NCBI GenBank assembly: GCA_902553145.1
Contig: CACDKD010000003.1
Span: forward strand, 2,168 to 66,167
DNA from: an uncultured Gammaproteobacteria bacterium
GTDB taxonomy: Bacteria; Pseudomonadota; Gammaproteobacteria; Steroidobacterales; UBA11654
DNA: 64,000 nt
Reading direction: 5' to 3'
Below the pieces are notes generated by a model. That model was not told the DNA's origin. It worked only from the letters and a program-made list of their open reading frames with translations, and did not search any database. Positions 5,728 to 57,466 of this stretch are shown piece by piece; positions within the stretch are counted from its first letter, which is position 1; each line of letters opens with the position of its first letter. The translations under genes were made by a program, and so were the position numbers.

Positions 5728-6360
5728 ATGGTTGATCAGTCAACAGAAGATAATTACGCTGGCGTTTGGGACAGCGGTTTGGGGTTTGGTGAAAAGTCAG
5801 CATTAATCGTTATTGATTTGCTTCAAGGTTACACAACTGAAGGTTCAGCACTCTATGCGCCTGGTGTTGTTGAGTGCGTAAAGGAAATGCCAGAAGTACT
5901 TGCATTGGCACGAGAAAAGAATGTGCCTGTCATTCATACGAGAGTCCTATATACGAAACCCAATTATGAAGATGGAGGTGTTTGGGTTAAGAAAGCACCG
6001 GTCCTTCTTGATCTGGTTGAAGGTCATCCTTACGCAGATTTTTGTGAAGGTGTTGAACCGCAAGAAGGCGAGGTTGTCATTATTAAGCAATACGCGAGTG
6101 CGTTCTTTGGAACCTCATTGGTGGCCACATTGAATGGACTTGGCGTGGATACGCTAATCATTACCGGATGCACAACATCTGGATGTATTCGAGCCACAGC
6201 TGTAGATACCGTTCAACACGGTTTCAGGCCAATTTGTGTAAGAGAGTGTATCGGCGATAGAGCCGAAGGACCGCATGAGGCAAATCTCTTTGACATCAAT
6301 GCCAAATATGGCGATGTCATCAGTAAAGACCATGCGATGGATTATTTAAATAATTTGTAA
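5728..6360 (+). CDS. Isochorismatase-family cysteine amidohydrolase (N-carbamoylsarcosine amidase/RutB-like)
   Basis: 210 aa. Motifs are ALIVIDLLQGY, IIKQYASAFFGT and IITGCTTSGCIRATAVD, a layout consistent with the Asp-Lys-Cys triad. Confidence 0.8.
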   Translation: MVDQSTEDNYAGVWDSGLGFGEKSALIVIDLLQGYTTEGSALYAPGVVECVKEMPEVLALAREKNVPVIHTRVLYTKPNYEDGGVWVKKAPVLLDLVEGHPYADFCEGVEPQEGEVVIIKQYASAFFGTSLVATLNGLGVDTLIITGCTTSGCIRATAVDTVQHGFRPICVRECIGDRAEGPHEANLFDINAKYGDVISKDHAMDYLNNL

Positions 6361-6379: not shown

Positions 6380-7303
6380 ATGAGTGAGTTAACACAATCA
6401 AGGCACTACGATTATGTGCCAATTATTGACCGAGAACCATTTAAATTACCAGATGGTGCAAGGGTCGCAGTTTTACCGTACATAAACATTGAGCATTTTC
6501 CTGCAGCAATTGCCGGAACCTCATTGATTCCTGGGACTGCAGCTTTCTCTCCTGATCCATTGAATTATGGATGGAGGGATTATGGCAATAGGGTAGGCTT
6601 ATGGAGAATGATGGAATTGATGGATAAGCTTGGCATGAGAGGCACTGTTTGCCTTAATGCAGAGATCATTAGGGAATACCCAAGAATCATTGAAGAATCT
6701 CTGGCAAGAGATTGGGCATTCATCGGACATGGGATCAATAATGCGCCTGCTAATTTCATTGGCAATGCACCTGATGGAGAAGGAGGTCATACACCTCTTC
6801 CAGAAGAGAAAGAAAGAGAAATCATCAGCACTGTTTGTCAGACTATGGAGGAAGCATTGGGTAAGAAAACAAAAGGTTGGTTAAGCCCATTTCTAACTCA
6901 TACGGATAATACTCCAAAAATCCTTGAGGAGAATGGCGTTGAGTATCTTTGTGACTATACTGCGGATGATCATCCATTTAAGTTCAATACTCCAAAAAAT
7001 AATCTCATCGCAGTTCCTTACACTGTTGAGCTTAATGATATTCCTGCATTTTTGGGTCATTCAGGCGTAGGTGTATCATCAGAAGCCTTTGGAGACATGA
7101 TTGTTGATCAATTTGATGTCCTTTATGAGGAAGGCGCAACGAATGCAAGGTGTATGCCTATTTGCTTGCATACATTTCATGTTGGTCAGCCAAATAAATT
7201 TAAGCATCTAAAAAGAGCTTTTGAATATATTGCCGGCCATGACGACGTTATCCTTTCAACAGGCGATGACATCAATGATTGGTATCGAGAGCAATACATG
7301 TAA
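6380..7303 (+). CDS. Polysaccharide deacetylase-fold protein (PuuE allantoinase-like subgroup)
   Basis: 307 aa. The YGNRVG.WR...L, FIGHGINNA and LHTFHVGQP pattern resembles the PuuE-like deacetylase family. The assignment is by eye only. Confidence 0.55.
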   Translation: MSELTQSRHYDYVPIIDREPFKLPDGARVAVLPYINIEHFPAAIAGTSLIPGTAAFSPDPLNYGWRDYGNRVGLWRMMELMDKLGMRGTVCLNAEIIREYPRIIEESLARDWAFIGHGINNAPANFIGNAPDGEGGHTPLPEEKEREIISTVCQTMEEALGKKTKGWLSPFLTHTDNTPKILEENGVEYLCDYTADDHPFKFNTPKNNLIAVPYTVELNDIPAFLGHSGVGVSSEAFGDMIVDQFDVLYEEGATNARCMPICLHTFHVGQPNKFKHLKRAFEYIAGHDDVILSTGDDINDWYREQYM

Positions 7304-12905: not shown

Positions 12906-13388
12906 TTGACAGAAAAGATCACCGATCCAGCAAAAACGAGAAAGAAGGCCATGGATTTTCTTGCTCGAAGAGAGCACTCGCGTCTGGAACTCTATCAAAA
13001 GCTTAAACAAAGACAATTCGAACCCGATGTCATTAACTCTGAATTAAGTAAACTACTAGACGAAGGATTGCAGAGCGATGAAAGATTTGCCCAAGCATTT
13101 TTGAGATCCAGAATTGATAAGGGCAAGGGCCCAAATATAATTCTCTCGGAACTATCACAACGAGGCGTCGATGAACTGCTTGCCTCAAATGTGATAGGCA
13201 GCATATCGGAGGAAGAGTGGAACGATCTGGCATACAAGACAATGAATAAAAAGTTGGGGAATGGAGCAGAACTTGATTATGATAAGCAGTTGAAGTTAAT
13301 GAAGTTTTTAAGCAACAGGGGATTTACTCGCAGTCAGATAGAGAAGGCAAAAAATTTACTGAGACAAAAATTTAACAGGATCAAATGA
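12906..13388 (+). CDS. recX: RecA regulator RecX
   Basis: 160 aa, directly after recA. RecX-type helical-repeat sequence (ALDFLARREHSRLEL, RFAQAFLRSR). Confidence 0.85.
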   Translation: MTEKITDPAKTRKKAMDFLARREHSRLELYQKLKQRQFEPDVINSELSKLLDEGLQSDERFAQAFLRSRIDKGKGPNIILSELSQRGVDELLASNVIGSISEEEWNDLAYKTMNKKLGNGAELDYDKQLKLMKFLSNRGFTRSQIEKAKNLLRQKFNRIK

Positions 13389-15976
13389 AAACAAATGAAA
13401 TAAGACAGGCTTTTATTGAATTCTTTGAGTCAAAGAAGCATCAGAGTGTTACAAGTTCTCCTTTGATTCCTGCCAATGATCCAACGCTCTTGTTTACCAA
13501 TGCTGGAATGGTCCAATTTAAGGACATATTTTTAGGAAAAGAAGATCAAGGCTTCACAAAAGCAGTCAGCGCTCAGAGATGTTTAAGGGCAGGCGGTAAA
13601 CACAATGATCTTGAAAATGTTGGCTATACTTCACGTCATCATACTTTCTTTGAGATGCTAGGAAACTTTAGTTTTGGAGATTATTTCAAAGAGGAGGCAA
13701 TCCTTTTGGCATGGAGCTTTATTACCGATGAGCTAAATCTTGAAAAAGATCGTCTCTGGATAACCATTTTTCAAGACGACGATGAGGCAGCAACAATTTG
13801 GCTTGATAAAGTTGGAATATCTGAGGACAGACTTCTTCGATTGGGAGAAGAGTCTAATTTTTGGTCCATGGGTGATACCGGACCATGCGGGCCTTGCAGT
13901 GAAATCTTTTATGATCATGGAGATCACATTGACGGGGGACCTCCCGGAACTTCCAATGAGGATGGTGATCGCTTTGTAGAAATTTGGAATCTTGTTTTTA
14001 TGCAATACGACCGACAAGCAAGTGGTGAGCTGGTGGATTTGCCGAAACCATCCGTTGATACCGGCATGGGTTTAGAAAGGATAGCAGCTGTGATGCAGGG
14101 GGTAAGCAGCAACTATGACATAGATCTATTTAAGAAGCTCATCAATGCGATAAAGAGTCAATCTGAAAAAGGTGAGGAGAGCCATTATCGAGTTATTGCA
14201 GATCATATTCGATCATCTGCTTTCCTTATCATGGATGGTGTTACGCCCGATAATGAGGGAAGAGGCTATGTCCTAAGGAGGATTATCAGAAGGGCATTGA
14301 GACATGGGTATGATTTGAAAATAAATTCCCCATTCTTTTATAAGCTCGTCGAAGTTTTGACAGAAGAAATGGGGCAAACCTACCCCGAGTTGCTTAATAA
14401 AAAAGATTACATAGAGCGAATCATTTTGATGGAAGAAGAGAGATTCGCTGCAACACTCTCGCAAGGAATGACTTTATTGCAGAAAGAATTTGATCGCACA
14501 AATGCCGAATTGATTTCAGGCGAATTTGCATTCAAGTTATATGACACATACGGTTTTCCATTGGACATGACTATTGATATAGCAAGAAGTGTCTCAAGAA
14601 CTATAGATATTGAGGGCTTTGAGAAAGCGATGGAAAAACAAAGGGAAATGGCTAGAAAGGCCAGCAAATTTAAGATTGATGAGTCTTTCAGCCTTGATCA
14701 TGGCTTGAAAAGTGATTTTTATGGATACCAAGATTTGGATACTGAGAGTGAAGTTATAGGTGTCTTTGGAAAAGACGGATCTGATAAGCTTCAAGAAGGC
14801 GAAATTGGACAGGTCATTCTCGATAAAACGCCATTTTATGCGGAAAGCGGGGGACAAGTAGGCGATCAAGGTTCATTTAGTTCAGAAAGTATTAATTTCG
14901 AAGTCTTGGATACTCAGTTTTCTGGCGATGCCTATTCTCATATTGGAACCGTCTCCACGGGTCAAATCAAGGTTGGAGATAAAATTAAAGCTTCCGTAAA
15001 TCCAGTAAGAAGAAAATCAATCACATTGAATCATACCGGTACGCATATGCTTCACAGAGCTCTAATGATGGTTTTGGGCGAGCACGTTCAACAGAGGGGT
15101 TCATTGGTGGACGATGAAAGAATTAGATTCGACTTCTCACATCACCAGTCATTGACATCAAATGAAATTAGAGAAATAGAAACAATTGTGAATGAGAAAA
15201 TTGAAGAGAATATTGATGTTCAAACCAGTATCATGAAACATGACGAGGCTATTAGCTCAGGAGCAATGGCACTCTTCGGAGAGAAATATGGCGAGGATGT
15301 AAGGGTTCTTGACGTCGGAGATTTCTCAAAAGAGTTGTGTGGAGGGACTCATGTCAGCAACACAAATGAAATTGGAATATTTAAAGTCGTTTCTGAGTCA
15401 AGCATATCCTCAGGAACAAGAAGAATAGAGGCCATCACTGGAGACAAAGCTTTGAAATGGGCAAAAGAAACAGAGTATTTGATTGAATCGCTGACGGATT
15501 TATTGCAAACCAGAAGAGAGGATGTTGCGAGCAAAGTAGAGAATTTAGTTGATACGAATAAAAAACTACAAGCTGAAATAAAACAGCTCAAGTCACGGAT
15601 TGCTTCAGGGCAGACATCCGATGAAGATAGCAGTTCCGAGGAAATCAATGGAATTGCCTACTTATATAAAGAACTGGAAAGTGAAACCGAACCAAGTGTG
15701 ATGCGAGGAGCCATAGATCAGTTTAAAAATAAGCTCGAATCAGGAGTAATTGTTCTTTCATCGATCAATAAAAAAGGAAAGGTGACATTTAGCATCGGTG
15801 TTACAGATGATTTAACATCTAAAGTCGAAGCCAGCTCAATCGCAGACATAATTGCTAAAGCACTCAGCGGAAATGGCGGCGGGAAAGCAAATTTTGCTCA
15901 AGCAGGAGGTTCTGATGCTGAAAAAGTACCTGCTGCTCTAGAATCCGTTAAAGAATTTTTGAAAAAAAACTCTTAG
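13385..15976 (+). CDS. alaS: Alanine--tRNA ligase
   Basis: 863 aa. Motifs FTNAGMVQFKD and FFEMLGNFSFGDYFK, and an editing domain with HTGTHML..CGGTHV. ATGA overlap with recX. Confidence 0.98.
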   Translation: MKTNEIRQAFIEFFESKKHQSVTSSPLIPANDPTLLFTNAGMVQFKDIFLGKEDQGFTKAVSAQRCLRAGGKHNDLENVGYTSRHHTFFEMLGNFSFGDYFKEEAILLAWSFITDELNLEKDRLWITIFQDDDEAATIWLDKVGISEDRLLRLGEESNFWSMGDTGPCGPCSEIFYDHGDHIDGGPPGTSNEDGDRFVEIWNLVFMQYDRQASGELVDLPKPSVDTGMGLERIAAVMQGVSSNYDIDLFKKLINAIKSQSEKGEESHYRVIADHIRSSAFLIMDGVTPDNEGRGYVLRRIIRRALRHGYDLKINSPFFYKLVEVLTEEMGQTYPELLNKKDYIERIILMEEERFAATLSQGMTLLQKEFDRTNAELISGEFAFKLYDTYGFPLDMTIDIARSVSRTIDIEGFEKAMEKQREMARKASKFKIDESFSLDHGLKSDFYGYQDLDTESEVIGVFGKDGSDKLQEGEIGQVILDKTPFYAESGGQVGDQGSFSSESINFEVLDTQFSGDAYSHIGTVSTGQIKVGDKIKASVNPVRRKSITLNHTGTHMLHRALMMVLGEHVQQRGSLVDDERIRFDFSHHQSLTSNEIREIETIVNEKIEENIDVQTSIMKHDEAISSGAMALFGEKYGEDVRVLDVGDFSKELCGGTHVSNTNEIGIFKVVSESSISSGTRRIEAITGDKALKWAKETEYLIESLTDLLQTRREDVASKVENLVDTNKKLQAEIKQLKSRIASGQTSDEDSSSEEINGIAYLYKELESETEPSVMRGAIDQFKNKLESGVIVLSSINKKGKVTFSIGVTDDLTSKVEASSIADIIAKALSGNGGGKANFAQAGGSDAEKVPAALESVKEFLKKNS

Positions 15977-18704: not shown

Positions 18705-18795
18705 GGAGAGGTGGCTGAGTGGCTGAAAGCGCTCCCCTGCTAAGGGAGTATACGTTAATAGCGTATCGAGGGTTCGAATCCCTCTCTCTCCGCCA
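18705..18795 (+). tRNA. tRNA-Ser (anticodon GCU)
   Basis: I folded the cloverleaf by hand. The acceptor is GGAGAGG/TCTCTCC and the anticodon loop CTGCTAA. It has a long variable arm, the T-loop GGTTCGAATCC and an encoded CCA. Confidence 0.95.
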
Positions 18796-20709: not shown

Positions 20710-21987
20710 GTGATTGAGAATTTTAAAAAAAGAATCTTTGATATCCCCATTCAGGACAGATCTTCATTATTGAGAGCGTTCTTCTTCTTTTATTTTGTTC
20801 TATGTTCTTGGTATACAATTCGTCCAGTTAGAAATGAAATGGCTGTTCAAGCTGGATTAGAGAATCTTCCTGGCTTATTGTCTATCGTCCTATTGGTCAT
20901 GTTGATTGCCAATCCAGTCTACTCCTGGCTCGTCTCACGCATCAACCGCAATAGAATTGTTTTATACTTTTATTTGTTTTTTATCTTAAACTTATTGGCC
21001 TTCTTTTTTTCTTGGATCTTGCTCGATGCCTCATGGAGACCTCTTGTTGCAAAGAGTTTTTATATTTGGTGCAATGTTTTCTCTTTTTTTGTGGTCTCAA
21101 TATTTTGGGTTTCCATGATTAATTATTTCAGTGGATCTCAAGCTAAACTTTACTTTGGAATCATCAGTGCCGGCGGTTCCATAGGTGCATTCTCAGGCTC
21201 CTCCATTGCTCGTTTTTTTTCAACACAGGTTTGTGGATCAGTATCACTCTCGGATTGGGGACCGTTTTCTTTGATATTGATTTCTGTCATTTCATTATCA
21301 ATTGCTTGTTTCTTAAGCATGTCTTTTACGTCTGAAAAAAACGAGAGAGACAAAATATTGGCCAGTGATAATATTTCATCATCTGCAATTGAGCCGATTA
21401 CAGATATTGCCACATCACCCGTGCTTAAGAATCTTAGTCTATATATGGTCCTTTGGACTTGTTTGATGACATTTGGATGGATGATTGCTTTGGGAATAGT
21501 TCAAGAGTGGTCTACAGATCCATGCGAGAGAACCGCATTTTTTGCTAGGATTGAACAAATTGTTACTCCTTTGACACTCATTTGTCAGTTCCTGTTGACG
21601 TCATTTATTTTGCGAACGATCGGCATCAGGAAAGTTTTAATTATTTATGGATTTATTCTTTTTGCAGCAATCTATTTCTATGAAATATATCCCCAGATCA
21701 TGACTGTCTTGATCGTAGTTTCAATCCTAAGGACATTTGAGTACGGCTTATCAAAACCGGCTAGAGAGAGCCTCTTTACAAAACTCGAAATTGAGCAACG
21801 TTATAAATCAACGGTTTTTATGGATACTTTCTTTACAAGAGGCGGTGAGGTCATTGGCAGTTGGTTTGCCGCAAAAGGGGTTCTAATATTGGGCTTATCC
21901 TCAATGGGAGCAACGTTATTCATGATCCCATTCGCTGCCTTATTATCTTGGACTGGATACCGGTCATCAAAACTGTTAGACGAGTAA
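20710..21987 (+). CDS. Multi-TM transporter-like membrane protein (possibly MFS/NTP-translocase-like)
   Basis: 425 aa with about 11-12 hydrophobic segments. The N-terminal FFFFYFVLCSWYTIRPVRNEMAV resembles Npt/TLC-like MFS proteins. GTG start. The family call is tentative. Confidence 0.5.
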   Translation: MIENFKKRIFDIPIQDRSSLLRAFFFFYFVLCSWYTIRPVRNEMAVQAGLENLPGLLSIVLLVMLIANPVYSWLVSRINRNRIVLYFYLFFILNLLAFFFSWILLDASWRPLVAKSFYIWCNVFSFFVVSIFWVSMINYFSGSQAKLYFGIISAGGSIGAFSGSSIARFFSTQVCGSVSLSDWGPFSLILISVISLSIACFLSMSFTSEKNERDKILASDNISSSAIEPITDIATSPVLKNLSLYMVLWTCLMTFGWMIALGIVQEWSTDPCERTAFFARIEQIVTPLTLICQFLLTSFILRTIGIRKVLIIYGFILFAAIYFYEIYPQIMTVLIVVSILRTFEYGLSKPARESLFTKLEIEQRYKSTVFMDTFFTRGGEVIGSWFAAKGVLILGLSSMGATLFMIPFAALLSWTGYRSSKLLDE

Positions 21988-21992
21988 CGGGC

Positions 21993-22024
21993 AAAAAAAA
22001 ACAGAGCGTATGCTCTGTTTCTTT
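21993..22024. terminator. Bidirectional rho-independent terminator, stronger on the minus strand
   Basis: A9-CAGAGC-GTAT-GCTCTG-TTTCTTT. On the minus strand the hairpin is followed by nine consecutive U (eight beyond the 7-bp stem, whose last pair is A22001-T22018). Confidence 0.7.
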
Positions 22025-22220
22025 AGTCGAGTCCTTGGGGTGTCTGAAGCGAGATTCTTTCTTCAGCGCCTCGCCCGGTATCTCTTTCCGAACTTGGTGG
22101 GAATCAGTTCTCTTTTGCTGCTAGCTTATCTTCCCTGATTCGCTTTCACCCTTTAGGTCTCTTTCTCTTTTCGACTCTCCCTTCTGCGTCTTAAGTTACT
22201 TCCAGGTCGATCTCAAGAGA
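21993..22220 (-). ncRNA. Candidate stand-alone small RNA (about 230 nt), purine-rich with several GGA motifs; family unassigned
   Basis: A GC-enriched island sits inside a very AT-rich 550-bp intergenic region. A sigma70-like promoter lies upstream and a strong terminator downstream on the minus strand. Internal hairpins are at 22101-22141 and 22044-22066. No convincing ORF is present. Confidence 0.45.
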
Positions 22221-22227
22221 TGAGTTA

Positions 22228-22255
22228 ATATTACGACTTACTTAATTTTTTTCAA
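22228..22255 (-). promoter_or_regulatory. Sigma70-like promoter for the candidate sRNA
   Basis: On the minus strand this reads TTGAAA (22255-22250), a 16-nt spacer, then TAATAT (22233-22228). Confidence 0.4.
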
Positions 22256-22540
22256 ATAGATTCACGGGAATAATCAAAGTTTTTTTTGCTAATTTTTTTT
22301 ATGTCCTATAAAAAATAATATCCAGTATTAAGAGTATTTTATAACTTACTGATTTTCCTAAAAATCCAAAAAAATCATCAAAAAAAATGTGTCCTATAAG
22401 TTTTTTTCTAAAAAATTTAAAAAAATGAAATAAAAAAATAAATTTGCGCAAATGCACTTCTTAGAGGTTTATTATTAATGAGAAAACTATCGAATAAATT
22501 TGAATTTTCTTATGAAAATGATCACCTTTAATAAGATTAA

Positions 22541-23311
22541 ATGAAAAATAATAAAACAATAGATTTAAATGCTGATTTAGGTGAGTACAGCAATGAAGAC
22601 GAATTAAACAATGAGATTTCACTGATTCACCACATCACATCTGCAAATATAGCTTGTGGAGGTCATGCCGGTGATCAAGTTTCTATTAGAAACATTATCA
22701 ATCATTGCATCAATCATGATGTCCTGGTCGGCCCCCATCCTTCATACCCAGATAGGAAAGGATTTGGCAGGTCGGACTTTACAGTTAATGATGACGCGTT
22801 GAAGCAGTCTATTATTGAGCAAATCGAATGTTTCATGGAAACAGCCACTGAGCTGGATATAGTTCCGACGCACATAAAATTTCATGGCCAACTTTACAAC
22901 GATTGTTTTTCTGATGAGAACCTTAGCAATCTGTGTTTGTCTCTTATGATCTCAACATGCCCAAATTTAGCATTGGTCTGCCAGCCATATTCAGTTATTA
23001 GCAAGCTTGCTCATAAAACTGGCATCAAAGTCATTCACGAGGCATTCATAGATAGAAAATATAAATCCAGTGGATCTTTGATTCCGAGGGAGAGTGAAGA
23101 TTCAATGATCTCTTCTATTGAAGAGAGGGTCAGACAAGCGGTAACAATTGCATCCGAAAAAAGAGTTTTAACAAAGGACTCCAACTATTTAGAGATTGAA
23201 GCTGCCACTTTATGCATTCACAGCGATCATGATGACTCGGCATCAACAGCAATTGCAGTCAAGAAGAAGCTCCTCGAGAATCATATTCACATATCGAGTT
23301 ATGAAATCTAA
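22541..23311 (+). CDS. pxpA: 5-oxoprolinase subunit A (LamB/YcsF family)
   Basis: IDLNADLGE, ANIACGGHAGD and a pxpABC-type gene neighbourhood. Confidence 0.9.
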   Translation: MKNNKTIDLNADLGEYSNEDELNNEISLIHHITSANIACGGHAGDQVSIRNIINHCINHDVLVGPHPSYPDRKGFGRSDFTVNDDALKQSIIEQIECFMETATELDIVPTHIKFHGQLYNDCFSDENLSNLCLSLMISTCPNLALVCQPYSVISKLAHKTGIKVIHEAFIDRKYKSSGSLIPRESEDSMISSIEERVRQAVTIASEKRVLTKDSNYLEIEAATLCIHSDHDDSASTAIAVKKKLLENHIHISSYEI

Positions 23312-24924: not shown

Positions 24925-25001
24925 GCGCCTGTAGCTCAGCTGGATAGAGTACCTGGCTTCGAACCAGGTGGTCGGGGGTTCGAATCCCTCCGGGCGCGCC
25001 A
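24925..25001 (+). tRNA. tRNA-Arg (anticodon UCG)
   Basis: Hand-folded cloverleaf with acceptor GCGCCTG/CGGGCGC. The D-arm AGCTGGATA resembles E. coli Arg tRNAs. The anticodon stem CCTGG/CCAGG has loop CTTCGAA. T-loop GGTTCGAATCC and an encoded CCA. Confidence 0.93.
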
Positions 25002-43500: not shown

Positions 43501-45465
43501 TTAGTCCTCAAACTCCAGAATTTTTTGGTCCACCGATAGATTATCGCCTTCTGAACCCAATATCGATTTAATTTTAAGATCTTTAGAAGCTCTGAGACTG
43601 TTTTCCATCTTCATGGCTTCAACCACCGCAAGCTCTTCTCCTGCTTTTACTTCTTGCCCCTCGTTCACGCAGACTTTTATCAATAGTCCTGGCATTGGAG
43701 AGAGTAAAAATTTAGACATGTCTTGTGGAATCTTCTTTGGCATTAATTCATTAAGATCCGCCAATCTCTGTTCGGATATCAATGCCAATGCAACCTTGCC
43801 TTTATGGACTAGTTCGTATCTGGGCAATCTTTTTCTGATCTGCAAGACCATTTTCTGGTCATCGATCGAACAGATAACTCTTGGATCATTTGATTGCATG
43901 CTCAGGGACAAATGGTATTGATTGTTGTTTATCTGAACCAAGAAACCATCCCCATCTTTTTGTATGATGTTGTCGATGCGCTTATCTTCAAATTTAATGA
44001 CATACTTTTTTTCATTCTCATAAAAAGGATCTAGCTTCATTTGGTCCAACATATAACAGCCGCTCAATATCGATGCATAAATCTCATATTCTTTCTCATT
44101 GATGGCCTCTCCTTGGAATCCATCCGAGTATTCTTGTTCGATAAAATCTGTGGTCGTATACCCAGAACGAAATGTCTTATTTTGCATGATTGAGCTTAGA
44201 AAATTTAGGTTGTGAGACAAGCCATCGATGACGTATTGGTCTATTGCATTAGTCATATTCTCAATCGCTGAGTCTCTGTTTTCTCCATGAGTGATTAATT
44301 TTGCAATCATCGGATCATAAAACATTGATACTTCGCTGCCTTCTCTGATTCCAGTGTCTACTCTGACCGTTTTCGTATGTTCAGGAGTTAGATATTTCGA
44401 TAATCTTCCAATGGAAGGCATGAAGTCACGATAAGGATCCTCGGCATATACTCGTGATTCAATTGCCCAGCCGTTGGTTGTTATGTCACTCTGCTTGATT
44501 TCAAGCTCTTCACCAAAGGCTATTTTTATCATTTGTTCTACCAAATCAATTCCCGTAACCATCTCTGTTACTGGATGCTCAACCTGCAATCTTGTATTCA
44601 TCTCTAAGAAATAAAAATTTTGATCTTTATCCACGATGAACTCAACGGTTCCTGCAGACTCATAATCCACTGCTTTGGCAAGTGCGATGGCCTGTCTGCC
44701 CATTTCTTGTCTTGTTTGATCATTGATAAATGGAGAAGGAGCTTCTTCAATAACTTTTTGATGCCTTCTTTGGATTGAGCATTCCCTTTCTCCCAAAAAG
44801 ATGGCGTTGCTCTTTTTATCTGCAAGAATTTGTATCTCAATGTGATGAGGTTCTGTTATAAATTTTTCAGCAAAGATTCTGTCATCACCAAAGCTTGCTT
44901 GGCTCTCATTTTTTGCTCTTGTAAAACCATCGATGCATTCATCGTCGTTTCGAACTACTCTCATTCCTTTCCCGCCACCGCCAGCGCTAGCTTTGAGCAT
45001 CACTGGATAGCCGATTTCTTTTGCTATTTCTACGGCTTCTTTTTCATCTTTGATGGCCTTGGTGTACCCAGGAATTACATTCACATTTGCTTCTTCAGCA
45101 ATCTTTTTTGATTTAATTTTATCGCCCATGCTCACAATTGCTTTGCGATTGGGGCCAATGAAAGCAATTTTATTTTTTTCCAATGCTTTTGCAAATTCCT
45201 CATTTTCAGAAAGAAAGCCATAACCTGGATGAACTGCATCGGCTTTGGATTCCTTGCAAGCAGCAATGATTTTTTCTATGACGAGATAGCTTTCTGAGGA
45301 GCTAGATCCACCGATGGAGATGGCTTCATCAGCAAGATCAGCATGCAAGGCGCTTTCGTCTGCATCAGAGTAAATTGCGACAGTTTTGATGCCCATTTTT
45401 TTGCAGGTATGAATAACTCTACAAGCTATTTCTCCGCGATTTGCGATCAAGATTTTCTTAAACAT
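43501..45465 (-). CDS. pccA: Propionyl-CoA carboxylase alpha subunit (biotin carboxylase plus biotinyl carrier domain)
   Basis: MFKKILIANRGEIACRVI, an ATP-grasp region, and the C-terminal EAMKMEN biotinylation motif. Confidence 0.9.
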   Translation of the reverse strand: MFKKILIANRGEIACRVIHTCKKMGIKTVAIYSDADESALHADLADEAISIGGSSSSESYLVIEKIIAACKESKADAVHPGYGFLSENEEFAKALEKNKIAFIGPNRKAIVSMGDKIKSKKIAEEANVNVIPGYTKAIKDEKEAVEIAKEIGYPVMLKASAGGGGKGMRVVRNDDECIDGFTRAKNESQASFGDDRIFAEKFITEPHHIEIQILADKKSNAIFLGERECSIQRRHQKVIEEAPSPFINDQTRQEMGRQAIALAKAVDYESAGTVEFIVDKDQNFYFLEMNTRLQVEHPVTEMVTGIDLVEQMIKIAFGEELEIKQSDITTNGWAIESRVYAEDPYRDFMPSIGRLSKYLTPEHTKTVRVDTGIREGSEVSMFYDPMIAKLITHGENRDSAIENMTNAIDQYVIDGLSHNLNFLSSIMQNKTFRSGYTTTDFIEQEYSDGFQGEAINEKEYEIYASILSGCYMLDQMKLDPFYENEKKYVIKFEDKRIDNIIQKDGDGFLVQINNNQYHLSLSMQSNDPRVICSIDDQKMVLQIRKRLPRYELVHKGKVALALISEQRLADLNELMPKKIPQDMSKFLLSPMPGLLIKVCVNEGQEVKAGEELAVVEAMKMENSLRASKDLKIKSILGSEGDNLSVDQKILEFED

Positions 45466-45473
45466 AGGTCTTC

Positions 45474-47006
45474 CTAGAGTGGGATATTGTCGTGCTTACG
45501 CCAGGGGTTTTCCTGTTGCTTATTCTTAAGCATTTCGAATGACTCGATTAATTTTTTCCTAGAATTGTTCGGCATGATTACATCATCGATGTATCCTCTG
45601 CTTGCCGCTATAAACGGATTGGCAAATTTTTCAGTATATTCTTGTGTTCGTTTTTCAATCTTTTTGTCGTCTCCAATATCCTGTCTGAAAATAATTTCAA
45701 CCGCGCCTTTAGGTCCCATCACTGCTATTTCTGCCGAAGGCCATGCAAAATTGATATCGCCTCCAATGTGTTTTGAACTCATGACATCATAAGCCCCTCC
45801 GTATGCTTTTCGGGTAATCAAAGTCACTTTAGGAACGGTTGCTTCAGCATATGCAAAGAGGAGTTTTGCTCCATGCTTAATGATTCCTCCATATTCCTGG
45901 GAAGTTCCTGGCATAAAGCCTGGAACATCAACCAAGGTTAAGATTGGAATGTTAAAGGCGTCACAGAACCTGACAAAACGTGCAGCCTTGATGGAGGAAT
46001 TGATATCAAGACAACCTGCCAGCACCAAAGGTTGATTCGCTACCACTCCGATGCTTGACCCATTGAGCCGAATAAAACCAGTCACAATATTTTGTGCATA
46101 CTTCGGTTGGAGTTCAAAGAAATCACCATCGTCGGCCACCTTATGAATAACTTCCTTAATATCGTATGGTTTGGAAGGATCTTGAGGCACCAATGTATCG
46201 AGTGCTGATTCTTCTCGGTCTATCGAATCATTGCATTCAATAGTCTCTGGATATTCCTGATTGCTTTGTGGAAGATAGCTCATGAATTCTCTTGTCATTA
46301 GGAGTGCATCTCTGTCGTTCTCAAATGTTAAATCTGCAACTCCAGATTTTTGACTGTGTGTCGATGCTCCCCCGAGTTCCTCAGCCGTGACTTCCTCATG
46401 CGTGACCGTTTTTACAACGTCTGGTCCTGTAACAAACATGTACGAGCTGTCTTCGATCATGAATATGAAGTCAGTCATTGAAGGCGAATAGACCGCGCCT
46501 CCTGCACATGGACCCATAACAAGTGAAATCTGTGGAATGACTCCGGATGCAAGCACATTTCTTTTGAAGACTTCAGCGTAACCGCCGAGAGAAACAACTC
46601 CTTCTTGAATCCTTGCTCCACCAGAATCATTTAGTCCGATCAAGGGCGCACCATTCCTGACTGCGTGATCCATGATCTTGCAGATCTTCTCGGCATGGGT
46701 TTCGGAAAGCGAACCACCGAAGACGGTAAAGTCTTGACTGAAAACATAAACCAGTTTGCCATTGATCTTCCCATACCCGGTTACGACTCCATCACCTGGG
46801 ATCTTTTGTTTGTCCATGTCAAAGTCAACTGCCCTATGCTCAACAAACATGTCGAGTTCTTGAAACGATCCTTCATCCAAGAGAATTTCAAGTCTCTCTC
46901 TGGCAGTCAGCTTGCCTTTGGCATGCTGTTTCTTTATTCGTTCTTCACCGCCACCTAATTTGGCAGCAGCTTTTTTTCTTTCAAGTTCTTTAATATTTTC
47001 TTTCAT
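45474..47006 (-). CDS. pccB: Propionyl-CoA carboxylase beta subunit (carboxyltransferase)
   Basis: 510 aa. [22 protein letters not shown] and a duplicated crotonase-like carboxyltransferase pattern ([17 protein letters not shown]). Confidence 0.92.
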
Positions 47007-47011
47007 ATTTT

Positions 47012-49132
47012 CTATTGAATCATATCAATTACTTCTAAAGCTGCTTTTGTGATATTCGTTCCTGGGCCAAAAACTGTTGCAACACCACAATCCTTAAGTG
47101 CTTCAATGTCTTGTTCAGGAATAATTCCACCGCAAACGACAAGTATATTTTCTGAACCTTGTTCTGCAAGAGAATTCATGAGTATCGGAACCAATGTTTT
47201 GTGTCCGGCTGCTTGAGAGGAGACACCAATGATATGAACGTCATTTTCAATGGCATCCCTTGCGGCTTCTTCAGGAGTTTGAAACAGGGGGCCTATATCA
47301 ACATCAAAACCCATATCTGCAAAGGCTGTTGCAATCACCTTCGCACCGCGATCGTGTCCATCCTGGCCTAACTTGACCACTAATATTCTAGGCCTTCTGC
47401 CATGCGATTCTTCAAACTCTTTTACTTTGCTTTCAACATTCATAAAGTCTTCATCGCCCTCATACTCTTTTCGGTAAACTCCACTGATTGATTGTGAAAC
47501 GGCTTTGTGTCTTCCGAAAACATTTTCCATTGCCAATGAGATCTCCCCAACGGTTGCTCGATGTTTTGCAGCCTCAATCGCCAATGCCATTAGGTTACCA
47601 TCTTCAGCGGCACATTTTTCAAGTTCAGCCAATGCATTTTGACATGCTTCCTCATTTCTTTCTTTTCTTATTGATTCTAATTTTTTAATCTGTTGATCCC
47701 TGACTCCTTCGTTGTCAATTGACAGTATGTCGACTTCTTTTTGATCCTTGTTTTTATAAGCATTCACACCAACAATGACGTCTTCTTTTTTATCCACTCT
47801 TGCTTGTCTGATGGCAGCAGATTCCTCTACTCTTAGTTTCGGCACTCCGGCTTGAATTGCCTTTGTCATGCCGCCAAGATCTTCAACTTCATCTATAAGC
47901 TTTTTCGTTTCACGAATCATTGAGTCGGTTAATGATTCAAGGTAATAAGACCCAGCTAGTGGATCGACAACTTTTGTCAATCCCGATTCTTCTCTGAGAA
48001 TCAACTGTGTATTTCTTGCAATTTGGGCAGAAAAAGGTGTTGGCAGTGCCAATGCCTCATCAAAAGAATTTGTATGCAGCGACTGAGTGCCACCCAAAAC
48101 TGCAGCCATGGCCTCAATCGTGGTTCTGACTATATTGTTGTAAGGGTCTTGACTGGTAAGACTGACACCCGACGTTTGACAATGAGTTCTTAACATCAAA
48201 GATTTAGGATTCTTTGGCGAAAATTCTTCTTTGATCATCTCAGACCAGAGGAATCGTGCCGCTCTGAGTTTTGCAATTTCCATGAAGAAGTTCATGCCTA
48301 TTCCAAAGAAAAATGACAGTCTCGGAGCAAAATCGTCAATATCCAGACCTTTCTTCATAGCAGACCTGACATACTCTAGACCATCTGCAAGTGTATAGGC
48401 GAGTTCCTGTGTGCATGTAGCTCCAGCCTCAAGCATGTGATAGCCAGAGATAGAGACGGTATTGAATTGAGGTAGATTATGAGAGCAGTACTCAATGATA
48501 TCAGCAACTATTCTCATTGAATGTTTGGGAGGATATATATATGTATTTCTCACCATGAATTCTTTGAGAATATCATTCTGCAATGTCCCGTTTAGATTTG
48601 ACTGATCAACACCTTGTTCTTCAGCAGCGACAACAAACATTGCCATAATAGGGATTACTGCACCATTCATGGTCATCGAGACTGACATTTTCTCGAGAGG
48701 GATCTGGTCAAAAAGCATTTTCATGTCTTCAACGGTATCAATTGCTACACCAGCCTTACCAACATCACCAGCAACTCTAGGATGGTCTGAGTCATAACCT
48801 CGATGAGTGGCTAAATCAAACGCCACAGAAAGACCAGTCTGTCCAGCTGATATGTTTTCTCTATAAAATGCATTTGATTCTTCAGCAGTTGAAAAACCAG
48901 AATATTGTCTGACAGTCCAAGGTCTTTTGGTATACATCGTAGCTCTGGGACCCCTCAGGAATGGCTCAATTCCCGGCATGGTATCGAGATGCTCTAATTC
49001 CATTAGATCCTCAGAGGAATAGACTGGTTTGACCTCTATCCCTTCGAGTGTATGCCAATCAAGACTTTCAATTTCATCTGTTTTAAGTTCAGATTGGGCT
49101 CTTTTTTTCCATTTTTCTTTAAGTTCAGACAT
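47012..49132 (-). CDS. scpA: Methylmalonyl-CoA mutase, single-chain (substrate barrel plus B12-binding domain)
   Basis: 706 aa. [18 protein letters not shown], and the C-terminal B12 domain motif DGHDRG (DxHxxG). Confidence 0.95.
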
Positions 49133-55084: not shown

Positions 55085-57466
55085 TCACACAACCGGGTGT
55101 GCACTATCCAAAAACGTCTGCATATAAGTCATACTCAAATCATAGGATATTTCTGAATTTATCCCAGATTGAATTGGTTCATAGATAGTATTTCTCAATT
55201 GAGGTCTTCTCTCAGAGTTTATAATGAATTCTTCCATCCTATTTGCTTCAAATTCTTGTCCATGAATGCTGCCTGCGGCTCTTGATATGGATTCATTCAT
55301 TAATGTACCGCCCATGTCATTGACTCCTGCATTGAGACAACTCAATGCCCCTTCCTTCCCAAGCTTTACCCAGCTTGCTTGAATATTCTTAATATGAGGA
55401 TTCAAAGCTATTCTCGATACCGCATGCATCAGCAAAACCTCATTGAATGTCGGACCTGGTCTTGAATTCCCTCTCTTATACATGGGCGATTCCATGCTCA
55501 CATACGGGAGTGGTATAAATTCCGTAATGCCACCGGTTTCTTTTTGAAGGTCTCTTAGTTTTATCAGGTGAGTTGACCAGTCAGCGGGTTGTTCGGTATG
55601 TCCAAACATAATCGTAGACGTTGTTTTTATTCCAACTCTGTGTGCGGTTTTAATGACATTAATCCACTCCTCAGAAGTCAATTTATCAGGACAAATATTT
55701 TCTCTGACAGCGTCATCCAAAATTTCTGCGGCAGTCCCAGGCATTGTGCTCAATCCTGCCTCTTTGAGTTTTTGAAGATATTCACCAATCGGCAGACCCA
55801 ATGAGCTCGCCCCATGCGTTACTTCCAAGGGAGAAAATGCGTGTATGTGGATTTCCGGAACGCGTTCTTTTATTGCTTTGCAAATATCGATGTATGTATA
55901 GCCATCGTAATGAGGGTGTATTCCACCTTGAAGGCATACTTCATGCGCTCCTTTAGACCATGCCTCTAATGCTCTATCTGCAACCTCATCATTGTTGATC
56001 AGATAAGGCTTTCCTCTTAAATTCTCTTTCGTTTTCCCTTTTGAGAATGCACAAAAATGACACGAGTATTTACAGATATTTGTGTAATTGATATTCCTGG
56101 TGATCACATAAGTGACCTCGTCGCCATTTATTTTCTGCCTGAGTCGGTCTGCGTGATTTAGGACGAGATGATAATCGTCTCCTCTGGTATGAAAGAGTTT
56201 GGTGATTTCATCATGATCCAAATCTAATCCATGAATGGATTTATCAAGTATCTTCTTGATTTCATGTGAAACATCGCCACTTTTTTTGTTCACCCATAGG
56301 TCGTGTTTTCCTGACGCAGGAATGCTCAGTGATTCACCACAGCGCCATTGATCATGTCTTCCATATCGAGATGAGTCGGAAAGCTCCAAGATTCCTGAAT
56401 GCAAGTTTTTGTCATACCAGGATTGATCTTCTATGTATTCCGGATAAATTGCTAAACGCTCAACAAGTTCCATTCCCTTGTTGTTTGTAATTTTTTCTAA
56501 TTGCTCTATCTGCGGCCACGGCGACTCCGGATTCACATGATCGATGGTAATTGGTGAAACACCGCCCCAGTCATTGATTCCACTGTCTAAAATTTGGTCA
56601 AGGTAATCAGAATTGAGATTGGGCGGGCATTGTATATTCATGTCTTTGCCAAAAATGATTCTTGCTGCCGAAAGCGTCCAAAGAAGATCCTCTTTGGATG
56701 CGGGAGAATGTTTTTTCATTCTTGTGTTTTCTTTTGGAATAAAGTTCTGGATGATTACTTCTTGGATATGACCGTATTCTTTATGCAGATTTTTTATATC
56801 AAGAAGACTCTGAATACGCTCTTCAATGGTTTCACCGATGCCGATGAGTATGCCAGTGGTGATTGGTATCCTCAGTTTCCCCGCATTCTTCATTGTTTTC
56901 AGTCGCGTTGCTGGTTGTTTGTCTGGCGATCCAAAATGCGGACCTCCCTTGTCGCAAAGCCGCTCTGAACTTGATTCCAGCATGATGCCCATGGAGACTG
57001 AATATTCCCTTAGTTTTTCCATTTCCAGGAGCGTCATGTTTCCAGGATTTAAGTGCGGCAGTAGACCGGTTTCTTCATAAACCAGTTTCGACATTGAGCC
57101 AAGATATTCAATTGTTGTCTCAAAGCCTAATTTTTGGAGATGATCTTTCGCAACCTGATACCTCATTTCCGGTTTCTCGCCGAGGGTAAACAAAGCCTCT
57201 TTGACGAATTGCGCCTTGCCTTGTTCTGCAATTGCAAGGACTTGATCTGGCTCAAGGTAGGGAGCATAGAGCTTTTTCGGTGCCTTCGCAAAAGTACAGT
57301 AATGACAGACATCTCGACAAAGTTCCGTCAAAGGAATGAAAACTTTTTTAGAGTAGGTGATGACCTTTTTATCATCTCCTCTGACCTCTTTGGCTTTTTG
57401 CATTAGATCATCTAACTCATGGGAGTTAAATAAAGATATGTAATGATCTAGTTCTTGCTTTGACAT
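55085..57466 (-). CDS. fbiC: FO synthase, fused CofG/CofH (FbiC); 7,8-didemethyl-8-hydroxy-5-deazariboflavin synthase
   Basis: 793 aa with two radical-SAM CxxxCxxC motifs: CRDVCHYCTF in the N-terminal half and CKYSCHFCAF in the C-terminal half. It sits in an operon with cofC/D/E. Confidence 0.93.
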   Translation of the reverse strand: MSKQELDHYISLFNSHELDDLMQKAKEVRGDDKKVITYSKKVFIPLTELCRDVCHYCTFAKAPKKLYAPYLEPDQVLAIAEQGKAQFVKEALFTLGEKPEMRYQVAKDHLQKLGFETTIEYLGSMSKLVYEETGLLPHLNPGNMTLLEMEKLREYSVSMGIMLESSSERLCDKGGPHFGSPDKQPATRLKTMKNAGKLRIPITTGILIGIGETIEERIQSLLDIKNLHKEYGHIQEVIIQNFIPKENTRMKKHSPASKEDLLWTLSAARIIFGKDMNIQCPPNLNSDYLDQILDSGINDWGGVSPITIDHVNPESPWPQIEQLEKITNNKGMELVERLAIYPEYIEDQSWYDKNLHSGILELSDSSRYGRHDQWRCGESLSIPASGKHDLWVNKKSGDVSHEIKKILDKSIHGLDLDHDEITKLFHTRGDDYHLVLNHADRLRQKINGDEVTYVITRNINYTNICKYSCHFCAFSKGKTKENLRGKPYLINNDEVADRALEAWSKGAHEVCLQGGIHPHYDGYTYIDICKAIKERVPEIHIHAFSPLEVTHGASSLGLPIGEYLQKLKEAGLSTMPGTAAEILDDAVRENICPDKLTSEEWINVIKTAHRVGIKTTSTIMFGHTEQPADWSTHLIKLRDLQKETGGITEFIPLPYVSMESPMYKRGNSRPGPTFNEVLLMHAVSRIALNPHIKNIQASWVKLGKEGALSCLNAGVNDMGGTLMNESISRAAGSIHGQEFEANRMEEFIINSERRPQLRNTIYEPIQSGINSEISYDLSMTYMQTFLDSAHPVV

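Follow-up and report, generated by a model that had tools for sequence, protein, structure and literature searches.

Results

Identification of an IMES-1 gene beside pxpA

The window analysed here is the whole 64,000-nucleotide stretch (64 kb) of contig CACDKD010000003.1, from an uncultured Gammaproteobacteria bacterium. Between an MFS-type transporter open reading frame (ORF) at 20710..21987 and pxpA (22541..) lies a gap of 553 nt, with a GC content of 0.44-0.51 at 22000-22199 and of 0.18-0.27 at 22200-22549. The first-pass annotation, made from the sequence alone, had recognised an AT-rich gap of about 550 nt with a GC-enriched island, as is the case, and had read the island as a candidate novel small RNA (sRNA) gene on the minus strand. 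The novelty did not survive comparison with Rfam. The whole window was searched against Rfam 15 by cmscan at the gathering-score threshold, which returned three matches, namely two tRNAs and the IMES-1 family (RF02034). The IMES-1 match, at 22218..22018 of the minus strand, scores 111.5 bits, where the gathering score is 81 (E = 4.6e-23), and extends over the full length of the model (positions 1-191 of 191). IMES-1 is the sole significant Rfam family in the region, and its match does not lie on the strand of a plus-strand element such as a leader of pxpA, an assignment for which the annotation had allowed. We conclude, with a probability of about 0.85, that window positions 22221..21993 of the minus strand are a separately transcribed IMES-1 gene with the secondary structure described below.

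IMES-1 is a structured non-coding RNA of approximately 200-230 nt from uncultivated marine Gammaproteobacteria, comprising the SAR86 cluster and its relatives. The sRNA of the window is thus a member of an already-catalogued family, in the form of a divergent subfamily copy. IMES-1 was reportedly described from marine metagenomes, with its host not known, by Weinberg et al. (Nature 2009), and its very high abundance reportedly attracted notice in the metatranscriptomes of Shi et al. (Nature 2009). Rfam has included the family since about 2010, and it has been reported among the most abundant RNAs of the surface ocean. Full-text literature searches for IMES-1 and IMES-2/3/4 gave no mention of IMES-1 as an RNA, the original descriptions lying outside the searched texts.

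IMES-1 relatives and subfamilies

A scan with an exact pattern of core motifs (GGGTGAAAGC...CCACCAAG...AAGAGA), covering one genome per bacterial species, yielded 63 loci, nearly all from SAR86 single-cell or metagenome-assembled genomes or from unnamed marine Gammaproteobacteria. A subfamily-specific pattern gave 32 further loci from metagenome contigs, while an nhmmer profile built from the alignment added only one extra copy in the collected loci. In all, 73 distinct relatives were collected, from the SAR86 cluster, from related marine gammaproteobacterial genomes and from metagenomes. The sources, whether single-cell genomes, metagenome-assembled genomes or metagenomes, are marine throughout. 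The closest locus to the window by blastn is L039 (metagenome-assembled genome 'Gammaproteobacteria bacterium MED641'), with 86% identity over 6.5 kb, followed by L034, L062, L008, L013 and three metagenome-assembled genomes labelled 'Woeseia sp.'; SAR86 labels are absent from this group, whose records go by 'Gammaproteobacteria bacterium' or 'Woeseia sp.'. SAR86 copies score 180-200 bits with the Rfam model and window-type copies 91-111 bits, which is above threshold. The window copy belongs to a divergent IMES-1 subfamily.

Several genomes carry more than one copy. Tandem pairs approximately 300 nt apart occur at L017 (1612-2142), L026 (2206-2758), L051 (6478-7020) and L056 (2961-3491), and L058 carries two IMES-1 genes about 1.2 kb apart (5839-6057 and 7010-7237). 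Two separate loci within a single genome are represented by the pairs L019/L029, L041/L049 (both on the SAR86 chromosome OX044367.1), L023/L055 and L020/L050. SAR86-type IMES-1 genes were also collected under other names, L022 being labelled Candidatus Neomarinimicrobiota and L002 Pseudohongiella sp. The IMES-1 gene of L022 and the pyruvate dehydrogenase E1 gene downstream of it closely match the SAR86 loci L021 and L047, and both labels probably reflect mis-binning or mis-assignment and not the presence of IMES-1 in other phyla.

The transcription unit

The minus-strand promoter previously read in the window, TTGAAA-16 nt-TAATAT, is present. A promoter scan found 9 promoter-like sites where shuffled sequences gave 4.9 +/- 2.1, and a lone promoter match would therefore be weak. 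In a MAFFT alignment of 63 copies with their flanks, however, the upstream A/T tract, the -35 and the -10 elements are retained at fixed spacing, the -35/-10 pair standing at the same distance in 63/63 copies, while DNA outside the promoter-terminator limits is not conserved. Transcription is predicted to start near A22221, 7 nt after the -10 element, and the 3' end is placed in the U-run at 22000-21993. This run of eight further U follows a terminator hairpin with a 7-bp stem at 22018-22001, as the annotation had drawn it. A consensus terminator scan missed this hairpin, probably because the A-run preceding the stem can pair into the U-run, as it does in the minimum free energy (MFE) fold. 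The terminator, ACAGAGC-loop-GCUCUGUUUUUUUU, is almost invariant across the 63 aligned copies, and each of the tandem IMES-1 copies has its own promoter and its own terminator. Promoter and terminator are thus properties of the family and not chance matches, as their conservation across relatives and in each tandem copy indicates. The terminator probably works in both directions, the convergent MFS ORF stopping at 21987. No minus-strand ORF of at least 40 aa overlaps the IMES-1 region and the RNA is 66% purine, so that the annotation was right on the absence of a credible ORF and on purine richness. Its broader proposal, that the minus strand holds a separate non-coding RNA gene complete with promoter and intrinsic terminator, is supported by family conservation and covariation, and the gene had been given the correct location and orientation. 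The features of the window copy are collected in Table 1.

Table 1. Features of the IMES-1 gene in the window (coordinates of the forward strand; RNA motifs are written 5' to 3' on the minus strand).
Feature	Position	Strand	Basis
-35 element TTGAAA (TTGACA in SAR86 copies), preceded by an A/T-rich tract	22250..22255	minus	sequence; positionally conserved in 63 aligned loci
-10 element TAATAT, 16-nt spacer from -35	22228..22233	minus	sequence; GTAATAT conserved in relatives
Predicted IMES-1 transcript, ~229 nt	21993..22221	minus	ends inferred; family conservation
IMES-1 model match	22018..22218	minus	cmscan
5' hairpin domain: P1 UCUCUU (22220-22215)/AAGAGA (22169-22164), inner pairs, large apical loop	22164..22220	minus	MFE fold
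Palindromic hexamer CUUAAG, apical loop of the 5' domain, candidate symmetric kissing loop	22190..22195	minus	alignment
Long-range stem, 5' strand; closes the core, pairs with 22034-22040	22150..22156	minus	covariation
Conserved junction GGGUGAAAGC	22142..22151	minus	alignment
Hairpin P3, GAAUCAG/CUGAUUC, 7-bp stem, 27-nt loop	22101..22141	minus	covariation at every stem pair
Self-complementary hexamer GCUAGC in the P3 loop, candidate second kissing loop	22120..22125	minus	alignment
Conserved junction CCACCAAG	22093..22100	minus	alignment; motif is part of the search pattern
Hairpin P4, GUUCGG/CCGGGC, loop contains GAGAU at 22084-22080	22073..22093	minus	covariation; 100% standard pairs, double changes at 5/6 pairs
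Hairpin P5, CUGAAG/CUUCAG, loop contains AUCUC at 22055-22051	22044..22066	minus	covariation
Long-range stem, 3' strand	22034..22040	minus	covariation
Intrinsic terminator ACAGAGC-AUAC-GCUCUGU + U8	21993..22018	minus	sequence, fold, family conservation

The terminator stem displays no covariation. Among 58 distinct copies just one of its seven pairs varies at all, and this on one side only (A-U or G-U). The stem is still nearly invariant when metagenome copies are added (72 distinct sequences), and it is the loop that varies. The coding DNA of the lineages compared is only ~70% identical. Such conservation is unusual for a terminator and suggests that the sequence of the stem itself may be recognised.

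Secondary structure of IMES-1

The 229-nt RNA folds with an MFE of -69 kcal/mol, against -51.8 +/- 3.95 for 200 dinucleotide shuffles (z = -4.36). Covariation was evaluated on 58 distinct genome-derived copies (alignment A1) over an Rfam-like core of 34 pairs. Standard pairs occupy 93.7% of cells, compared with 81.4% after column shuffling and 25-53% when partners are slid by 1-3 columns. Double changes were found at 19 of the 34 pairs, distributed over P3 (9/9), P4 (4/5), P5 (3/6) and the long-range stem (3/7), and the observed covariation score was reached by none of 500 shuffles. The result was repeated on 72 distinct sequences including metagenome copies. A family fold comprising a 5' hairpin domain followed by a P3/P4/P5 core, closed by a long-range stem and with near-invariant junctions, is strongly supported. 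Conservation and covariation in relatives, the lack of which would have told against the first-pass proposal, are thus both found among the aligned copies. The two hairpins that it had drawn, GAAUCAG/CUGAUUC and CUGAAG/CUUCAG, are real and correspond to the family helices P3 and P5, respectively, both with covariation.

The 5' domain aligns poorly in MAFFT, while folds of single sequences recover one nested arrangement, an outer and an inner helix, throughout the clades. The sequences of these helices differ by clade (CAGC/GCUG, UGGC/GCCA and CUUGAU/GUCAAG, with UCUCUU/AAGAGA in the window), and the non-standard pairs reported by cmscan in the 5' domain arise because the helices are shifted in the window clade. 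The second pair of the long-range stem differs by clade, SAR86 copies having C-G and window-clade copies U-A, with 19 double changes. The junction GGGUGAAAGC has a variant, GGGCGAAAGC, in one relative (L058).

Three further pairings were considered and not adopted. When run on the MAFFT alignment, RNAalifold joins GGUG (of GGGUGAAAGC) to CACC (of CCACCAAG); the bases are invariant, partly by ascertainment, and the sole variant, GGGCGAAAGC in L058, is uncompensated. The GGGUG/CACCC pairing of the window MFE fold is possible only in the window clade and was not taken as a family feature. An extended closing stem, GAG.CCU/AGG.CUC, lacks the C in 10 of the 58 genome copies and is invariant at its other positions.

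The end-to-end pairing of UCGACCUGG with CCAAGGACUCGA that had been proposed for the window copy does not belong to the family fold. Pairing of the 5' end is confined to closing the 5' hairpin domain (UCUCUU/AAGAGA), and the core is closed by the separate long-range stem (22156-22150 with 22040-22034). That closing stem had been the reason for a comparison with 6S RNA, which binds RNA polymerase holoenzyme and has a similar size and a presumed abundance in common with IMES-1. The 5'-3' pairing is not conserved, a 5' hairpin followed by a three-hairpin junction differs from a long irregular helix with a central bubble resembling an open promoter, and a permissive cmscan of 21800-22600 on both strands (E<=10) gave no match to a 6S model, or to CsrB, CsrC or RsmX/Y/Z models. 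A 6S-like RNA is therefore so improbable here as to be practically negligible.

Several points weigh against the assignment of the window copy as a separately transcribed IMES-1 gene with this fold. Its score of 111 bits is well below the 180-200 bits of SAR86 copies, cmscan flags the non-standard pairs in its 5' domain, and only 4/7 pairs of its long-range stem are standard. The invariance of GGGUGAAAGC, of CCACCAAG and, in the genome set, of AAGAGA was partly forced by the search patterns. The transcript ends are those predicted from the DNA, and the comparison points to no partner or phenotype for IMES-1.

GGA motifs and the CsrB-type explanation

Since GGA motifs in loops sequester CsrA/RsmA in CsrB/RsmY/RsmZ-type sponge RNAs, the annotation had likened the window RNA to this class. 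A purine-rich RNA with five GGA, a strong terminator and probably high expression would suit such a role, as would a GGA at the edge of the P3 loop and the proximity of SAR86 copies to carbon-metabolism genes. The five GGA motifs are indeed present; their enrichment beyond chance is not, as dinucleotide shuffles give 6.6 +/- 1.5 against the 5 observed and three relatives behave likewise. Family-wide conservation of GGA is limited to two positions, both outside the hairpin loops. The first, AAGGAGC, occupies the single-stranded P4-P5 junction and is lost in the window copy, which has GAGGCGC, while the second, AAGGAA or AAGGAC, overlaps the long-range stem on its 3' strand. Different invariant motifs (AAGAGA and AAUCUC) are found in the hairpin loops, and none of the CsrB, CsrC and RsmX/Y/Z models is matched at E<=10.

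CsrA of E. coli, RsmA of P. aeruginosa, Hfq and ProQ served as tblastn queries in a search for candidate protein partners. CsrA was not detected (E<=1) in the 64-kb window or in loci L001-L064 (~0.5 Mb, 8 kb per genome), and neither Hfq nor ProQ was found in the window or the collected loci, of which only 8 kb per genome is covered. In many Gammaproteobacteria csrA lies between alaS and tRNA-Ser; the alaS...tRNA-Ser(GCU) neighbourhood of the window has no csrA. With GGA neither enriched nor conserved in loops, a sponge for CsrA/RsmA is a very improbable explanation of IMES-1.

A candidate P4-P5 loop-loop pseudoknot

The apical loop of P4 contains GAGAU in the window copy (GAGAA in SAR86), complementary to AUCUC in the P5 loop, and the bases involved are otherwise invariant. 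The putative pseudoknot comprises four pairs that are invariant apart from a change in the metagenome copies L066 and L069, where the P4 loop has GAAAU and the P5 loop AUUUC, so that the third pair has changed on both sides, from G-C to A-U. At the fifth position the window clade has U-A and most SAR86 copies A.A, with A-U in both L058 copies and G-U in one L056 copy. These comparisons make it probable, by a modest margin, that the P4 and P5 loops pair with each other (GAGAU:AUCUC). A contact of this kind, as far as it is supported, could form within one molecule or between molecules. To be set against it, the pseudoknot rests on a single compensatory event; AAGAGA was part of the genome search pattern, so that pseudoknot variants in SAR86 genomes would be missed.

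Palindromic apical loops

Two apical loops, those of the 5' domain and of P3, contain hexamers that differ between clades and nevertheless remain self-complementary in all the forms listed here (G-U allowed). For the 5'-domain loop, SAR86 copies have CUGCAG, the window clade CUUAAG and the L013 clade CUAUAG. The hexamer of the P3 loop is GUCGAC, GUCGAU, GUCGGC, GUAUAC or GUGCAU in SAR86 copies and GCUAGC (window), GUUAAC or GCGCGC in the window clade. Among all six-column windows of both alignments, no others reach self-complementarity in 80% or more of the sequences; averaged over every such window the value is 0.02-0.04. The symmetric pairs (1-6, 2-5 and 3-4) are formed in 94.8% and 91.3% of cells for the two hexamers, and the pairing and covariation score was reached by 0/500 shuffles. 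Symmetry is retained through the double changes GC/UA/AU, CG/AU/GC and CG/UA, and GUGCAU appears in two separate subclades (L003 and L016). There are at least six independent symmetric double changes and no variant that breaks the symmetry, the L013 clade keeping only GCGC.

As neighbouring bases of one chain cannot pair with each other, covariation between adjacent bases points to pairing between two molecules. The same argument from adjacent nucleotides was made for the symmetric intermolecular kissing loops L9.3 of OLE and L21a of GOLLD, and was confirmed by cryo-EM (PMC12286853). On comparative grounds each palindromic loop of IMES-1 may kiss the same loop of a second molecule and so give dimers, chains or rings, a proposal that we hold tentatively and at somewhat less than even odds. 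Three considerations count against it. A 6-nt palindrome (G-U allowed) in a loop of 20-27 nt is not rare by chance, so that the argument rests on the approximately six independent symmetric double changes; the shuffle statistics are inflated by the relatedness of the sequences; and some variants would also suit a 3-bp mini-hairpin between the first three hexamer positions and the three bases that follow the hexamer. The mini-hairpin is broken in GUAUAC, GUGCAU, L066 and L086, where the palindrome is kept, and was rejected because hexamer position 3 covaries with position 4 and not with position 7. Should the kissing contacts be real, a small and very abundant marine RNA would join the recently recognised natural RNA-only assemblies.

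Genomic context

In the window clade (32-36 loci) IMES-1 always lies between a divergent pxpA and a convergent MFS-type transporter gene. The spacer before pxpA is AT-rich and ~320 nt long, and pxpB and pxpC come after that gene; on the other side the stop codon of the transporter gene is 6 nt from the IMES-1 terminator, with SelO beyond. Upstream of SAR86 copies there is usually a divergent gene resembling indoleamine-2,3-dioxygenase, beyond which lies malate synthase G. Downstream on the same strand are pyruvate kinase, then an SSF symporter gene (18 copies), pyruvate dehydrogenase E1 (6 copies) or an SSF symporter gene (4 copies), while the beta subunit of oxaloacetate decarboxylase is convergent in 11 copies. 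IMES-1 of SAR86 adjoins genes of the pyruvate/phosphoenolpyruvate node. In agreement with this context, Dupont et al. located an abundant metatranscriptomic non-coding RNA of Shi et al. in the glycolysis and glucose-uptake region of SAR86A/B and inferred RNA-based control of carbon assimilation in SAR86 (PMC3358033). Locus L014 is from the SAR86A scaffold, and we infer that their RNA is IMES-1.

These neighbours bear on a possible cis-acting role, in which the terminator would be a regulated stop, as in a leader or attenuator, before the pyruvate kinase, aceE or symporter gene. The 28 SAR86 copies followed by a same-strand gene have it 29-84 nt past the predicted 3' end of the RNA, and these genes are pyruvate kinase, pyruvate dehydrogenase E1 or the SSF symporter, as a leader would have it. 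Yet the 32 loci of the window clade and another 21 SAR86 copies have a convergent gene downstream, which leaves nothing to attenuate, and a leader role thus cannot be general. The terminator stem is nearly invariant with no conserved anti-terminator pairing visible, tandem copies exist, and, as read from the alignment, the pyruvate kinase (pyk) loci have a promoter-like TTGCAA-16/17-TAATAT over the terminator end from which pyk could be transcribed alone. A leader is accordingly highly unlikely as an account of the family, and a cis role cannot apply to the window copy.

Another conceivable form of control would be that of an Hfq-dependent base-pairing sRNA regulating central-carbon mRNAs through a conserved single-stranded seed, for instance AAUCUC of the P5 loop. 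IMES-1 has the stand-alone gene, intrinsic terminator (7-bp stem + U8) and long U tail of such sRNAs, features that are not specific to the class. Between its 5' domain and its core it also has tracts rich in A and G that resemble ARN repeats, AAGAGAAAGAGA at 22169-22158 being an example. The reading of Dupont et al. (PMC3358033) and the location of SAR86 copies next to the genes for pyruvate kinase, pyruvate dehydrogenase E1, oxaloacetate decarboxylase and malate synthase are in keeping with it. Against this, about 60 unpaired nucleotides are invariant over several junctions and loops, the multi-helix junction fold is more elaborate than is usual in seed-pairing sRNAs, and the presumed seed AAUCUC is complementary to, and covaries with, the P4 loop of the same RNA. 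Moreover, the ARN-like tract is not kept as ARN in SAR86 copies (e.g. GACGGAGAG), the neighbours are wholly different in the window clade (pxpA and the MFS transporter), and hfq was not seen in the sequence searched, a small part of each genome. Action as an Hfq-dependent sRNA is on balance unlikely.

Further observations concern the surroundings of the gene. In the window a 285-nt spacer of ~20% G+C with A and T runs (22256-22540) separates the IMES-1 promoter from the pxpA start and presumably holds the pxpA promoter. In SAR86 pyk loci such as L028 and L042 the IMES-1 terminator is 30-40 nt from the pyk start codon. Alignment of these loci shows a promoter-like TTGCAA or TTGCAT and, after a 16-17-nt spacer, TAATAT or TAACAT overlapping the end of the U-run. 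This -10 lies only ~9 nt before the ATG of pyruvate kinase, which suggests that the pyk mRNA may be leaderless or nearly so. Three tandem glutamine riboswitch aptamers (RF01739) are found at 3102-3277 of L015, in a SAR86 genome and ~2 kb from its IMES-1.

In the window, alaS (13385-15976) is followed within 2.7 kb by tRNA-Ser(GCU) at 18705-18795, and tRNA-Arg(TCG) is at 24925-25001, after pxpC. Between the two tRNA genes lie SelO, the MFS transporter gene, IMES-1 and pxpABC. This order resembles the alaS-csrA-tRNA-Ser-tRNA-Arg arrangement of other Gammaproteobacteria, with csrA missing. Elsewhere the window carries a methylmalonyl-CoA pathway cluster at 43501-49132 (biotin carboxylase, carboxyltransferase and methylmalonyl-CoA mutase), a fused CofGH FO synthase at 55085-57466, many MFS transporter genes and one TonB-dependent receptor gene, the ordinary content of a marine heterotroph.

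IMES-1 sequence on an RNA-virus contig

One collected locus, the IMG/VR contig L064 (IMGVR_UViG_3300016740_000053), begins with 140 nt corresponding to IMES-1 positions 1-140, from the 5'-domain loop to the P5 loop. The remainder is a picorna-like RNA virus with a 1634-aa ORF (RNA helicase and RdRP) and an 892-aa ORF (Rhv and dicistrovirus VP4 capsid). Sequenced RNA is the only possible origin of an RNA-virus contig, and the sample thus contained IMES-1 RNA, which is indirect evidence of expression. The contig, an RNA virus with IMES-1 fused to its end, was ruled out as the insertion site of a mobile element; it is most likely a chimeric metatranscriptome assembly and not a phage or an integration site.

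Discussion

A proposed mode of action

The comparison anchors IMES-1 in genomes, namely dozens of SAR86 and, as a divergent subfamily with a different and fixed neighbourhood, a second marine gammaproteobacterial lineage. It also makes the Csr-type explanation very improbable and provides two structural hypotheses, the pseudoknot and the kissing loops, which link IMES-1 to RNA-only complexes. In the scheme that we propose, IMES-1 would be neither a GGA-motif sponge nor the leader of a neighbouring gene, and would be an abundant RNA particle that acts in trans by virtue of its three-dimensional structure. The P4-P5 loop-loop pseudoknot would fix the core, and the palindromic apical loops of the 5' domain and of P3 may join IMES-1 molecules by symmetric kissing.

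Comparison with known RNAs

The window copy has in common with the family described by RF02034 the 5' hairpin domain, the three-hairpin core, the junctions, the intrinsic terminator and an uncultivated marine gammaproteobacterial host. It departs from SAR86 IMES-1 in P3, with a stem of 7 bp and a loop of 27 nt versus 9 bp and 19 nt, in the 5' loop, which is CUUAAGACGCAGAA versus CUGCAGACGGGAGA, and in the change of the junction AAGGAGC to GAGGCGC. Its long-range stem is weak, unlike that of SAR86 copies, and its clade has pxpA and the MFS transporter as neighbours, whereas in SAR86 these are the indoleamine-2,3-dioxygenase-like gene with pyk, aceE or oadB.

Among well-known regulatory RNAs, CsrB, RsmY and RsmZ resemble IMES-1 in being stand-alone, probably abundant and purine-rich with an intrinsic terminator; IMES-1 differs from them in having no excess of GGA, no GGA in repeated hairpin loops and no model match. 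With 6S RNA it has the size class and a presumed abundance in common, while the fold differs. The L2-L3 contact of the purine riboswitch aptamer offers a structural parallel to the proposed pseudoknot, as P4 and P5 are likewise adjacent junction hairpins with complementary, near-invariant apical loops. Unlike that aptamer, IMES-1 is free-standing, with its own terminator and without an expression platform, and is not known to bind a ligand; no sequence or model similarity relates the two.

The likeness to OLE, GOLLD and ROOL (PMC12286853) is of another kind. All are bacterial non-coding RNAs of no known function that were found by comparative genomics, and the IMES-1 loops switch between palindromes as do those of OLE and GOLLD. 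No homology connects them, and IMES-1 is much smaller, at ~200-230 nt compared with ~600-800 nt. OLE, GOLLD and ROOL are natural homo-oligomers, whereas oligomerisation of IMES-1 is deduced from sequence comparison. With two symmetric loops per monomer, IMES-1 would be expected to form dimers, chains or rings and not the cages known from these larger RNAs.

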